Shown: positions 9,166 through 11,997, counted from the first letter of the stretch. The stretch: 34,694 bases of DNA from a virus (IMGVR_UViG_2534682325_000013); one strand, 5' to 3'. Made by a program: numbers and translations. Notes: a model not told the origin generated them from the letters alone.

Positions 9166-9172
9166 CATCCAA

Positions 9173-9235
9173 CCGCAGCACGTTCTTGCATACGCCGTGT
9201 CTGCGGTTTAATTTTTACTCTCAAATATTGTAGTT
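9173..9235 (+). terminator. Possible terminator after the methyltransferase gene
   Basis: Inverted repeat aaccgcag...ctgcggtt with a long loop, followed by taatttttac. Loop is long, so only moderate support. Confidence 0.35.
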
Positions 9236-9662
9236 AAGTACAATAATGATTCCTGTGGCTATATAGATGTTTTTGTAATTAGTCCTTAAGATAAAATTTC
9301 TCTATTTATCCAAGAAACAGACTTCATTAGGAAGAGTCGTAAAAACATTAACAACTACCGCCGTGTAATTAAATTATTTTTTAGAATGTTCTGATTGAGA
9401 AAAACAACGCCATACACATCAAAAGATATAGAAATGTAAATTTAGATTTATTAATCTTTTGAGTTACAACCTAAACTTTCCGTTAATCACCAAGATATCA
9501 ACAGATTATACTCACTGAGTACACATTTTTACAATTGCTATTTCTCACATTAAGATGCGCATACCAATCTCTTATTTGACACTTTCTTATTTGTTACTAG
9601 AGTTAATTGGGTGCTGACAAGGCACATGTTATTTACAATTTGAAAATCAGAGGAGAAATGAT

Positions 9663-9845
9663 ATGACCGAACATCGTGGCGGTGCAGGTAATTTCGCTGA
9701 AGATCGACAAAAAGCTTCTGACGCTGGTCGTAAAGGCGGCCAACATAGTGGCGGTAATTTTAAAAACGATCCACAAAGAGCATCAGAAGCAGGGAAAAAA
9801 GGTGGTCAGAATAGCCATGGTGGCGGCCGTAAATCTGACTCTTAA
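9663..9845 (+). CDS. yciG: YciG-like general stress protein with KGG repeats
   Basis: 60 aa, MTEHRGGAGNFAEDRQKASDAGRKGGQHSGGNFKNDPQRASEAGKKGGQNSHGGGRKSDS; close to E. coli YciG as I recall it. Good SD (agaggag) 7 nt upstream. First gene of a four-gene same-strand cluster. Confidence 0.85.
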   Translation: MTEHRGGAGNFAEDRQKASDAGRKGGQHSGGNFKNDPQRASEAGKKGGQNSHGGGRKSDS

Positions 9846-9882
9846 TTTATCACCCCCTACATTCGTGAATAACTGAAGCTAA

Positions 9883-9904
9883 CTGCGAGCCTACGGGCTC
9901 GCAG
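9883..9904 (+). other. Perfect 9-bp stem / 4-nt loop hairpin between yciG-like and yciF-like genes
   Basis: ctgcgagcc tacg ggctcgcag. No U-tract follows, so not a canonical intrinsic terminator; possible RNA processing or stability element. Confidence 0.5.
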
Positions 9905-9923
9905 TGAAAACTCTGGAGTGATT

Positions 9924-10424
9924 ATGCAAATTAAATCTGTTGAAGATATCTTCATCCACTTATTATCGGATACATACAGCGCTGAGAAACAACTAACAAA
10001 GGCACTGTCTAAACTTAGTCGCTCTGCATATAGTGATAAATTAACCGCTGCTTTTCAGTCACATCTTGATGAGACACATGGTCAAATTGAACGCATCGAT
10101 CAGGTTGTTGATTCTGAAGATGGTCTTAAATTGAAAAGAATTAAGTGTGCCGCAATGGAAGGACTTATCGAAGAGGCGAATGAGGTAATTGAAAGCACTG
10201 ATAAAAATGAAGTACGTGATGCTGCATTGATTGCTGCAGCACAAAAAGTAGAGCACTATGAAATTGCCAGTTATGGCACTTTGGTAACACTCGCTGAGCA
10301 ATTAGGATATAAAAAAGCGGCTAAACTCCTGAAAGAAACACTGGAAGAGGAAAAAGCTACTGATGTCAAATTAACAGACCTGGCATTTAATAACGTTAAT
10401 AAAAAAGCTCAGGATAACTCCTGA
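9924..10424 (+). CDS. yciF: YciF-like protein (DUF892, ferritin-like four-helix bundle)
   Basis: 166 aa from the ATG at 9924 (SD ggag 7 nt upstream; track ORF starts 2 codons earlier at a GTG). Sequence IKSVEDIFIHLLSDTYSAEKQLTKAL... resembles E. coli YciF. Confidence 0.85.
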   Translation: MQIKSVEDIFIHLLSDTYSAEKQLTKALSKLSRSAYSDKLTAAFQSHLDETHGQIERIDQVVDSEDGLKLKRIKCAAMEGLIEEANEVIESTDKNEVRDAALIAAAQKVEHYEIASYGTLVTLAEQLGYKKAAKLLKETLEEEKATDVKLTDLAFNNVNKKAQDNS

Positions 10425-10460
10425 ACTATAGACTTCAATTTCTTTTAGGATAAACAGATT

Positions 10461-10967
10461 ATGAATAGAATTGAACATTACCATGACTGGCTTCGTGATG
10501 CACATGCGATGGAAAAACAAGCTGAAAAAATGCTTGAGTCTATGGCCAGCCGGATAGAAAACTATCCTGAGTTACGTTCCAGAATTGAGCAGCACATTAG
10601 CGAAACAAAGAACCAGCTTTCACAGCTTGAAAGCATACTTGATCGTAATAATATTTCGCGCTCTGTCATTAAAGACTCTATGAGTAAAATGGCCGCGTTT
10701 GGACAATCCATTGGTGGAATTTTTCCATCTGATGAAATTGTCAAAGGTTCGATCAGTGGCTATGTGTTCGAACAATTTGAAATTGCGTGTTACACATCTC
10801 TTCTCGCAGCAGCCAAAAATGCGGGTGATACAGCTTCAGTACCCATTATTGAAGCAATTCTTAATGAAGAAAAACAAATGGCTGAATGGCTTCTTAACCA
10901 TATTCCTGACACCACTGAGCAATTCATGGTCAGATCTGAAATTGATGGAGTTGAAGCCAAAAAATAA
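10461..10967 (+). CDS. yciE: YciE-like protein (DUF892, ferritin-like)
   Basis: 168 aa, MNRIEHYHDWLRDAHAMEKQAEKMLESMASRIENYPEL...; paralogous to the preceding gene; 36-nt spacing. Confidence 0.85.
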   Translation: MNRIEHYHDWLRDAHAMEKQAEKMLESMASRIENYPELRSRIEQHISETKNQLSQLESILDRNNISRSVIKDSMSKMAAFGQSIGGIFPSDEIVKGSISGYVFEQFEIACYTSLLAAAKNAGDTASVPIIEAILNEEKQMAEWLLNHIPDTTEQFMVRSEIDGVEAKK

Positions 10968-10985
10968 TTCTTTTGAGGAGGCATT

Positions 10986-11876
10986 ATGTTTAGACACGTG
11001 AAAAAACTTCAATATACAGTACGTGTAAGTGAGCCAAACCCAGGCTTGGCTAATCTACTCTTAGAACAATTCGGTGGGCCACAGGGTGAGCTTGCAGCAG
11101 CATGCCGATACTTCACTCAAGGCTTAAGTGATGAAGATGCAGGCCGAAGGGATATGCTGATGGACATAGCAACAGAAGAACTAAGTCATCTCGAAATTAT
11201 TGGTTCTCTTGTTGGTATGCTCAACAAAGGTGCAAAAGGAGCACTTGCTGAAGGAACTGAGAATGAAGCTGAGCTTTACCGTTCCTTAACTCAAAATGGC
11301 AATGATAGCCATATAACTTCTCTCCTCTACGGAGGAGGCCCAGCATTAACTAATTCAGCTGGAGTACCCTGGACTGCAGCTTATGTTGATACTATTGGCG
11401 AAGTCACGGCCGATCTTCGTTCAAATATTGCAGCTGAAGCTCGGGCAAAGATCATTTACGAACGTCTCATTAATGTTACTGATGATCCTGGAGTAAAAGA
11501 CACTCTGGCATTTTTAATGACCCGGGAAGCAGCACACATGCTTTCATTTGAAAAAGCATTACATTCAATTCGTAACACCTTTCCACCAGGAAAATTACCA
11601 CCACTTGAGAAATACAAAAACGTATATTACAACATGTCAGAAGGTGAAGACGTCAGAGGTAGTTGGAACAGTGATGAAAACTTTGACTATGTTTCCGATC
11701 CAGTTTCAGCGGTTGACGGTGGGGATGGGAAGGCCTCGATAAATCTTTCGACCAAGCAAGAAGCCATGATAAAAGCTATGGCAACAAGGTTGAAATCCCA
11801 TGAAGACATCAATCCTGTCACTGGCGCTGAGCTTGCTGAAGGAGAACCACAAACAAAGATAAATAGTAAAAACTAA
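10986..11876 (+). CDS. katN: Manganese-containing (non-haem) catalase, KatN-like
   Basis: 296 aa. N-terminal four-helix-bundle region with conserved Glu/His metal ligands (EELSHLE, REAAHMLSFE), typical of the Mn-catalase family. Strong SD (gaggagg); 18 nt after the yciE-like gene. Confidence 0.8.
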   Translation: MFRHVKKLQYTVRVSEPNPGLANLLLEQFGGPQGELAAACRYFTQGLSDEDAGRRDMLMDIATEELSHLEIIGSLVGMLNKGAKGALAEGTENEAELYRSLTQNGNDSHITSLLYGGGPALTNSAGVPWTAAYVDTIGEVTADLRSNIAAEARAKIIYERLINVTDDPGVKDTLAFLMTREAAHMLSFEKALHSIRNTFPPGKLPPLEKYKNVYYNMSEGEDVRGSWNSDENFDYVSDPVSAVDGGDGKASINLSTKQEAMIKAMATRLKSHEDINPVTGAELAEGEPQTKINSKN

Positions 11877-11963
11877 TTATCTTCTGGTATTTAGCTATCC
11901 CTCATAAGTTAATTGCCGCTGAGATATCCTAAGCTCTAGCCTCTGAAAATACATTTATATTTC

Positions 11964-11997
11964 GAAGCCCGCGATATTTTAAGCGGGCTTTTATTTT
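11964..11997. terminator. Hairpin terminator between convergent katN-like (+) and tfa (-) genes, possibly bidirectional
   Basis: aagcccgc / gcgggctt stem with ~10-nt loop, followed by ttatttt on the plus strand; A/T-rich on the other side too. Confidence 0.55.

Follow-up and report, generated by a model that had tools for sequence, protein, structure and literature searches.

A yciGFE-katN stress operon with its own predicted promoter as prophage cargo in Escherichia coli O157:H7

The stretch of viral DNA analysed here (IMGVR_UViG_2534682325_000013, 34,694 nucleotides, referred to below as the window) carries between positions 9166 and 11997 a compact group of four genes, yciG-like, yciF-like, yciE-like and katN, together with the elements predicted to control their transcription. 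An earlier sequence-only reading had described four tightly spaced, same-strand genes for a KGG-repeat protein, two DUF892 ferritin-like proteins and a manganese catalase. Four open reading frames (ORFs) on the + strand at 9663-11876, with spacers of 72-78, 36 and 18 nt from yciG to katN, agree with this description, and Pfam matches and PDB relatives bear out each of the family assignments. The features of the locus are as follows.

9213-9575, + strand: AT-rich, apparently non-coding upstream region (GC content, ORF and Rfam scans)
9576-9606, + strand: predicted promoter, with -35 TTGACA at 9576-9581, a 16-nt spacer and an extended -10 C-TAGAGT-TAA at 9597-9606 (scan and conservation)
9663-9845, + strand: yciG-like gene for a KGG-repeat general stress protein of 60 aa (Z1924 by gene order; PF10685; RefSeq WP_000134810.1)
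9882-9905, + strand: hairpin in the yciG-yciF spacer, 10-bp G+C-rich stem without a U tract (RNA fold z = -4.5)
9924-10424, + strand: yciF-like gene for a DUF892 ferritin-like protein of 166 aa (Z1923 by gene order; PF05974)
10461-10967, + strand: yciE-like gene for a DUF892 ferritin-like protein of 168 aa (Z1922 by gene order; PF05974)
10986-11876, + strand: katN (Z1921), manganese non-haem catalase of 296 aa (PF05067)
11964-11998, + strand: predicted intrinsic terminator, with a 9-bp stem, 10-nt loop and U tract (sequence and RNA folding)

All four proteins scored far above the Pfam gathering cut-offs. The YciG-like protein matched the KGG family PF10685 with two repeats (1.1e-16; 61.1 bits against a cut-off of 20.4 bits) and was 93% identical to E. 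coli K-12 YciG over 43 aa. Both ferritin-like proteins matched PF05974 (cut-off 23.7 bits): the YciF-like protein at 3.2e-54 and 183.7 bits, with the E. coli YciF structure (PDB 2gs4, 1.3e-82) as a relative and 80% identity to K-12 YciF, and the YciE-like protein at 1.2e-50 and 172.1 bits, with the YciE structure (PDB 3ogh, 3.2e-97) as a relative and 88% identity to K-12 YciE. The yciF-like ORF opens at a GTG at 9918 (168 aa); the RefSeq start is the ATG at 9924 (166 aa). Its product contains the metal-site residues Q54, E113 and E143; in Salmonella YciF, mutations at these positions impair both the binding of iron and the ferroxidase reaction (bioRxiv 10.1101/2023.01.20.524870). The YciF- and YciE-like proteins are four-helix-bundle, di-iron ferritin-like proteins that, by analogy, probably oxidise and sequester Fe2+, and we infer a ferroxidase activity for them on the same grounds.

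The katN product matched the PF05067 Mn_catalase family over residues 1-270 (7.9e-87; 291.3 bits against a cut-off of 27 bits), the only other family to pass the default E-value limit being a weak COQ7 match. Its relatives in the PDB were Anabaena KatB (4r42/6j42, ~1e-46) and the L. plantarum enzyme 1jku (9e-35). Residues E35, E65, H68, E151 and H184 of KatN align column for column with E35, E66, H69, E148 and H181 of 1jku_A, the five di-manganese ligands of that enzyme (L. plantarum numbering). The gene order yciG-yciF-yciE-katN, on one strand and with short spacers, is that of the Salmonella-type operon.

A nucleotide search with 8400-12600, a segment with the operon inside it, returned many E. 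coli O157:H7 chromosomes at 100% identity. Positions 9166-11997 were 100% identical to the EDL933 chromosome, and the neighbouring tfa, methyltransferase and ISEc8 sequences were likewise the same. The genes at 9663-11876 are the published yciGFE-katN operon (Z1924-Z1921) of O-island 52, prophage CP-933X, in E. coli O157:H7; we infer the assignment of Z1922, Z1923 and Z1924 to individual genes from the gene order. The sequence-only reading had been unable to tell whether this context was already described: the operon and its prophage context are both in the literature (2009 and 2017). Dong and Schellhorn (2009; PMC2907692) listed Z1922-Z1924 under O-island 52, CP-933X, and reported RpoS dependence in stationary-phase EDL933 of 35-fold for Z1922, 64-fold for Z1923 and 137-fold for Z1924. 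Wan et al. (2017; PMC5363993) recognised Z1921 as a manganese catalase, reported 84% identity to the Salmonella enzyme KatN and gave it the same name. They described katN, z1922, z1923 and z1924 as forming an operon with high homology to the S. Typhimurium yciGFEkatN, placing it on the cryptic prophage CP-933X as a horizontally acquired element. Purified KatN had a catalase activity of 268.3 U/mg, and the katN deletion mutant showed a growth defect at 1-2 mM H2O2; RpoS was essential for katN expression, OxyR stimulated it and H-NS repressed it, with ~450-fold derepression upon deletion of hns (PMC5363993). The earlier interpretation was correct, since published loci and experiments match it: these EDL933 data confirm the proposed RpoS dependence (PMC2907692, PMC5363993) and catalase function (PMC5363993). 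Most of the checks that the sequence-only reading had proposed are thus already in print, among them RpoS dependence, catalase activity and the H2O2 phenotype.

The limits of the inserted segment were placed by comparison with the DLP12 prophage of K-12; the segment and its flanking features are as follows.

8497-9165, + strand: ybcY-like class I S-adenosylmethionine-dependent methyltransferase gene, left flank, outside the cargo (Pfam methyltransferase domains; RefSeq WP_000239881.1)
9166-9212, + strand: 47-bp 3' flank of the methyltransferase gene, common to DLP12 and retained wherever the cassette occurs
9213-12013, + strand: cargo segment of 2,801 bp, 39% GC, where K-12 DLP12 has 29 bp of tfaD-ybcY spacer
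11996-12577, - strand: tail fibre assembly gene tfa, right flank (Caudo_TAP, 3.4e-45)

On the left, 8211-9212 (tfaX, ybcY and 47 bp past the ybcY stop) is 97% identical in DNA sequence to the K-12 DLP12 tfaX-ybcY region, and in a blastn comparison of 8100-12700 the homology stopped at 9212 and resumed at 12014, where 12014-12431 corresponds to tfaD at 97%. The last six tfa codons (11996-12013) therefore fall inside the cargo segment, and a small terminator-like hairpin was found by hairpin scan at 9194-9207, within the methyltransferase 3' flank. To the right of tfa stand the gene for a 973-aa tail fibre protein and the rest of the lambdoid late operon; from 12577 on, every late tail gene lies on the - strand, which agrees with the opposite orientation claimed earlier, as the Caudo_TAP match on the right and the methyltransferase on the left agree with the claimed position between tfa and a ybcY-like gene. 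The segment is thus inserted between genes that are adjacent in the related phage DLP12, has a promoter and terminator of its own, and differs in GC content from the late region (39% vs 57%; 53% for the whole window). PHROG families matched all four cargo proteins, every one under the label 'unknown function'. The segment is a ~2.8-kb cargo cassette (moron) lying just past the tail-fibre genes and convergent with tfa.

Upstream of yciG, 497 bp (9166-9662) separate the operon from the methyltransferase gene, and 9213-9662 has only 29% GC compared with 53% in the window. ORFs at 9213-9575 were limited to 20-33 aa, none with support, and an Rfam scan of the leader and spacers gave no family at gathering score. 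The best promoter-like site of the region is TTGACA/16 nt/TAGAGT at 9576-9603, with 10 of 12 matches. When yciG upstream regions of K-12, Salmonella, Enterobacter and Klebsiella were aligned, ATTTGAC and, 16 nt on, CTAnnnTTAA were the sole conserved blocks; the ~360 bp of AT-rich DNA upstream of the promoter had no counterpart in the regions aligned. Promoters of the sigma-S type are marked by a C at -13 and a TAA after the -10 element. By its motif, the predicted promoter at 9576-9606 fits this type, and because the motif is shared with chromosomal yciG upstream regions, the cassette appears to have brought its native promoter along. The sequence-only reading had assigned the genes a ~500-bp AT-rich leader and a terminator. 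The AT-richness and the terminator stand, and the leader is open to a refinement: as the only conserved promoter motif sits at 9576-9606, most of this DNA is probably untranscribed upstream sequence, and the true 5' untranslated region would be ~55 nt if transcription starts where the motif predicts. A ribosome-binding site, GAGGAG, precedes the yciG-like gene at 9650-9655. AT-richness, together with the published derepression in the hns mutant, makes 9213-9575 a probable, putative H-NS nucleation region or target.

The hairpin at 9882-9905, of the form CUGCG(A/G)G..GGCUCGCAG, also occurs in the yciG-yciF spacers of K-12, Salmonella and Enterobacter, with small sequence differences between copies, and was covered by no Rfam family at gathering score; it may act in mRNA processing, stability or partial attenuation. 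At the other end, the G+C-rich terminator hairpin occupies 11964-11991 and its U tract overlaps the tfa stop codon, tail-to-tail with tfa. A simple consensus terminator scan missed it and gave only weak sites within genes, apparently because the 10-nt loop exceeds the 3-8 nt loop limit of that scan.

Taken together, these elements suggest how the operon would work. In growing cells H-NS would silence it, probably through the AT-rich upstream DNA; once cells enter stationary phase or meet stress, RNA polymerase with sigma-S, aided by OxyR, would transcribe yciG-yciF-yciE-katN from 9576-9606 to 11964-11998. Because the cassette has its own promoter and its own terminator, expression in the lysogen would be independent of the phage lytic programme, and stationary-phase, RpoS-dependent expression has been reported in EDL933 lysogens (PMC5363993, PMC2907692). 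KatN disproportionates H2O2 at a di-manganese centre. If the two DUF892 proteins behave like YciF of Salmonella, they would oxidise Fe2+ and sequester it, thereby limiting Fenton chemistry; the YciG-like protein is a small, hydrophilic KGG-repeat stress protein.

The sequence-only reading had proposed a survey of lambdoid prophages for the same cargo. At a query coverage of at least 80%, the cassette was found in 381 of 5,426 complete E. coli genomes (~7%), always on the chromosome. Of the 425 matching records, 335 were at least 99% identical, and O157:H7 made up the majority of the records listed; non-O157 copies showed 96-99.8% identity. Most pathogenic E. coli have been said to carry katN (PMC5363993), a statement that the ~7% genome frequency does not bear out. 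In IMG/VR, nine prophage contigs carried the cassette at 98-100% identity. No plasmid carried this allele, the best plasmid match having ~73% DNA identity over ~74% of the query.

Across these genomes the cassette is found after tfa in lambdoid prophages that occupy at least four chromosomal contexts, which, together with the DLP12-like DNA on both sides, bears out the proposal of prophage cargo. Outside O157 it was present in a strain of serotype O111:H21, in a prophage that borders icd; in a urinary isolate, in a prophage beside bio-ybhB; in a blood isolate; and in a marsupial faecal isolate, E. coli A41 (NZ_CP028735.1), directly downstream of sitABCD (excerpt 2392-8705). In all non-O157 cases the right side (katN, terminator, tfa, stf, lom, J) was constant and the left side varied, the match starting at 9166-9171. 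In A41 the iron/manganese ATP-binding cassette importer genes sitABCD and the manganese catalase gene are thus neighbours where a lambdoid prophage ends. A truncated copy, consisting of the 3' part of yciE and katN, was seen in a dog isolate (E. coli Z0117EC0098), where it abuts a recombinase-family gene (excerpt 5350-6377); this gene in turn adjoins genes for tail fibre and baseplate that belong to a second phage-like cluster. The truncation suggests recombination between two prophage tail-fibre regions.

Overall, we are highly confident that the locus is the self-contained yciGFE-katN stress-operon moron of CP-933X, with its own predicted sigma-S-type promoter and an active manganese catalase. 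Nothing contradicts this main explanation, and four observations weigh against parts of it. First, KatN scored 167.4 bits against the ManCatBAC equivalog of NCBIfam (NF052557), for which the cut-off is 350, so that it is a member of the manganese catalase family outside that equivalog group. Second, the region contained 14 promoter-like sites compared with 10.1 +/- 2.9 in shuffled sequences, which is no excess, and the promoter call accordingly rests on cross-species conservation. Third, the 50,697-record phage collection contained no isolated phage genome with the cassette allele, so transfer by an active phage is not demonstrated; its only two long matches were unannotated fragments of 1.6-2.2 kb, 84% identical, which are probably Salmonella-type chromosomal DNA. 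Fourth, deletion of katN left virulence in mice at the wild-type level (PMC5363993).

The alternative that survives best concerns the place where KatN acts: rather than a cytoplasmic stationary-phase catalase, it may mainly be a secreted type VI secretion system (T6SS) effector that lowers reactive oxygen species (ROS) in the macrophage cytosol. Its experimental grounds are that T6SS-dependent secretion was reported along three lines: His-tagged KatN in the supernatant; fusions to beta-lactamase and TEM-1; and lower macrophage ROS together with better intramacrophage survival (PMC5363993). The secretion assays, however, used plasmid-expressed tagged protein, and the mouse result just mentioned counts against this role as well (PMC5363993). 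Nothing in the sequence supports secretion: in neighbourhood annotation and family search we found neither linkage to T6SS genes nor an effector motif, with no T6SS gene nearby in the window and none (vgrG, hcp, PAAR or adaptor) annotated in the regions examined around the cassette. Co-transcription, from a predicted sigma-S promoter, with stress proteins of cytoplasmic type also speaks against an effector, as do orthologues within the same yciGFE operon across many Enterobacteriaceae. We consider effector function as the main role of KatN possible and on balance doubtful; it adds to the stress-operon explanation and does not exclude it. Sequence and gene neighbourhood neither support nor refute export, the claim for which comes from the experiments of Wan et al.

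A further question is where the cassette came from, and the comparison with chromosomal yciGFE proposed by the sequence-only reading bears on it. The operon had 74% DNA identity to K-12 yciGFE, and megablast did not connect the two loci. For YciF and YciE combined, the window copy was 84.1% identical to K-12, 81.1% to Salmonella and 81.3% to Enterobacter, while the chromosomal copies of these three were 86.5-88.0% identical to each other (K-12/Salmonella 86.5%, K-12/Enterobacter 87.0%); these distances suggest that the prophage copy lies outside the Escherichia chromosomal clade. Relatives of KatN were taken as the best 80 loci from a scan of 185,579 species representatives, one genome per species. 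Among these, the closest were from Kosakonia (87%), Yokenella and Phytobacter (85-86%) and Salmonella (84%); none was from Escherichia and none exceeded 87% identity, so that no donor was identified. In neighbour-joining trees, YciF+YciE of the window was sister to the E. coli K-12 chromosomal copy on a long branch, and KatN was nearest to the Salmonella and Kosakonia-like (Phytobacter, Yokenella) copies. Because the nearest relative differs between the two trees, the cassette cannot be assigned an origin. The four-gene order also occurs in Salmonella, Enterobacter, Klebsiella and Leclercia loci, with no adjoining tfa or methyltransferase gene.

On the evidence of the sequences, the cassette would be either an old xenologue of enterobacterial origin or a phage-borne lineage that evolves fast, and not a recent duplicate; the comparison thus answers the question of paralogue or xenologue in favour of an old xenologue, at 74% DNA identity to the K-12 locus. 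A stronger version, that prophage yciGFE-katN is a distinct, long-standing phage-resident lineage spreading by tail-fibre-module recombination and not a recent capture, draws on the 81-84% identity to the sampled chromosomal copies against 86-88% among those, on the constant linkage to the tfa 3' end and on the gap in donors among the best 80 loci. We think this version unlikely and offer it tentatively; if true, in some strains the cassette is paired with the sitABCD Mn/Fe importer as a manganese-based antioxidant island.

A recent duplication of the resident E. coli yciGFE beside the prophage, with a catalase gene appended, might be read from the sister position of YciF+YciE to K-12 in the tree, from the 88% identity of YciE to K-12, which is above that to any other genus, and from the similar GC content (41% vs 42%). 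A recent copy is nonetheless hard to reconcile with 74% DNA identity and no megablast link, with YciF+YciE diverging further from K-12 than the Salmonella or Enterobacter copies do, or with a four-gene order like that of Salmonella, Enterobacter and Klebsiella. The K-12 locus itself has no katN: a KatN tblastn search there gave no match, and Escherichia was absent from the best 80 loci. Because of this DNA identity, the YciF+YciE divergence and the missing K-12 catalase gene, we rejected recent duplication, which seems to us highly improbable.

Equally improbable is that the genes form a host chromosomal island merely abutting the prophage end. The cassette does lie near the prophage-chromosome junction, among insertion sequence (IS) elements and ompT, and no free phage genome carries it. 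Phage sequence nevertheless stands on both sides, tfa on the right and ybcY with the tfaX remnant on the left, both at 97% to DLP12, and the tfa-stf-lom-J linkage is kept beside neighbours as different as bio-ybhB, icd, sitABCD-ompN and minCDE-ompT; the IMG/VR prophage predictions include the cassette, and the PHROG matches to all four proteins point the same way. Finally, a decaying, non-functional remnant in a cryptic prophage, as the degraded surroundings (ISEc8 by a tfa fragment, IS1203, pseudogenes in related strains) and the one truncated copy might suggest, has next to no probability and counts as already refuted, given four intact ORFs with all metal ligands kept, the unchanged recurrence of WP_000134810.1, WP_001166090.1 and WP_001079482.1 in unrelated strains, and the published expression and enzyme activity.

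Several features of the wider window were recorded alongside the cargo cassette. The IS66-family element ISEc8 (tnpA, tnpB and transposase; 5804-8137) adjoins a truncated tfaX-like fragment at 8192-8440; tfaX of K-12 DLP12 has no neighbouring ISEc8. The prophage end at 1794-5501 contains ompT, a gene for a 494-aa alpha/beta hydrolase and one for a regulator with helix-turn-helix and cupin domains. Its layout parallels the K-12 DLP12 end tfaD-ybcY-tfaX-appY-ompT-envY, with different genes between tfaX and ompT. An IS3-family element at 363-1671 (IS1203 in matching genomes) is missing from the collinear TW14359, whose match begins at 1672, and positions 1-362 have no match to the TW14359 neighbourhood and lie outside the best genome hits; these two observations suggest an IS-associated rearrangement at the left edge of the window. 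Matches to RF02111 (IS009) were found inside tfa at 12036-12234 on the - strand (229.5 bits; gathering score 117) and in the left tfa fragment at 8214-8417 on the - strand (109 bits, slightly under the gathering score), and seem to reflect sequence conserved in tfa and not any property of the cargo. In the tail fibre protein of 973 aa (12577-15498, - strand) there are a long Ala/Ser/Thr-rich low-complexity region, repeat units of the form KGIVQLS.ATNS.SE.LAATPK.VKAA, and His-rich HTHS repeats toward the C terminus.

Since the locus was published in 2009 and 2017, the present finding opens no new question, and our additions are incremental: the cassette boundaries, the conserved regulatory elements, the ligand check, the divergence estimates and the survey of contexts. 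It is a clear case of a prophage giving its lysogen a complete, natively regulated stress operon. Through it E. coli O157:H7 gains a third catalase class and a second yciGFE copy, the prophage genes being homologous to the chromosomal yciGFE, and this gain may aid survival of oxidative stress, stationary phase or macrophages. The boundaries, promoter motif, hairpin and tfa linkage may be of use for studies of regulation or as a marker.

Compared with known systems, the locus does not differ in substance from Z1921-Z1924 of EDL933, being the same locus. KatN of Salmonella enterica is a sigma-S-dependent, non-haem catalase. The chromosomal yciGFE-katN operon of that species, to which the sequence-only reading had rightly likened the prophage genes, agrees with them in its four genes and in how these are ordered and oriented, with identities to the subsp. 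arizonae/diarizonae copies of 88% for YciG, 80% for YciF, 83% for YciE and 84% for KatN; the -35/-10 blocks and the yciG-yciF hairpin are common to both, and both operons are RpoS-dependent. The differences are a DNA identity of ~73%, the status here as prophage cargo, and a 29%-GC upstream stretch without a Salmonella counterpart. In K-12 yciGFE (b1259-b1257, between trpA and ompW) the three genes are homologous to the first three here and the promoter motif and hairpin are conserved, whereas the catalase gene is missing and the genomic location differs. Among manganese catalases, KatN shares the fold family and the five di-manganese ligands of 1JKU, 4R42/6J42 and the T. thermophilus enzyme 2V8T, and differs from the solved structures in a ~55-aa C-terminal extension beyond the aligned core (residues 242-296), which it has in common with Salmonella KatN at least to residue 289. 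Lambdoid morons, of which lom and bor of lambda and sodC of Gifsy-2 and O157 prophages are examples, resemble the cassette in being autonomous units of promoter, genes and terminator, placed in the accessory region close to the genes for the tail fibre, and in lysogen expression and benefit to the host under stress. In contrast to such single genes, the cargo here is a whole four-gene enterobacterial operon with its native, predicted sigma-S promoter.

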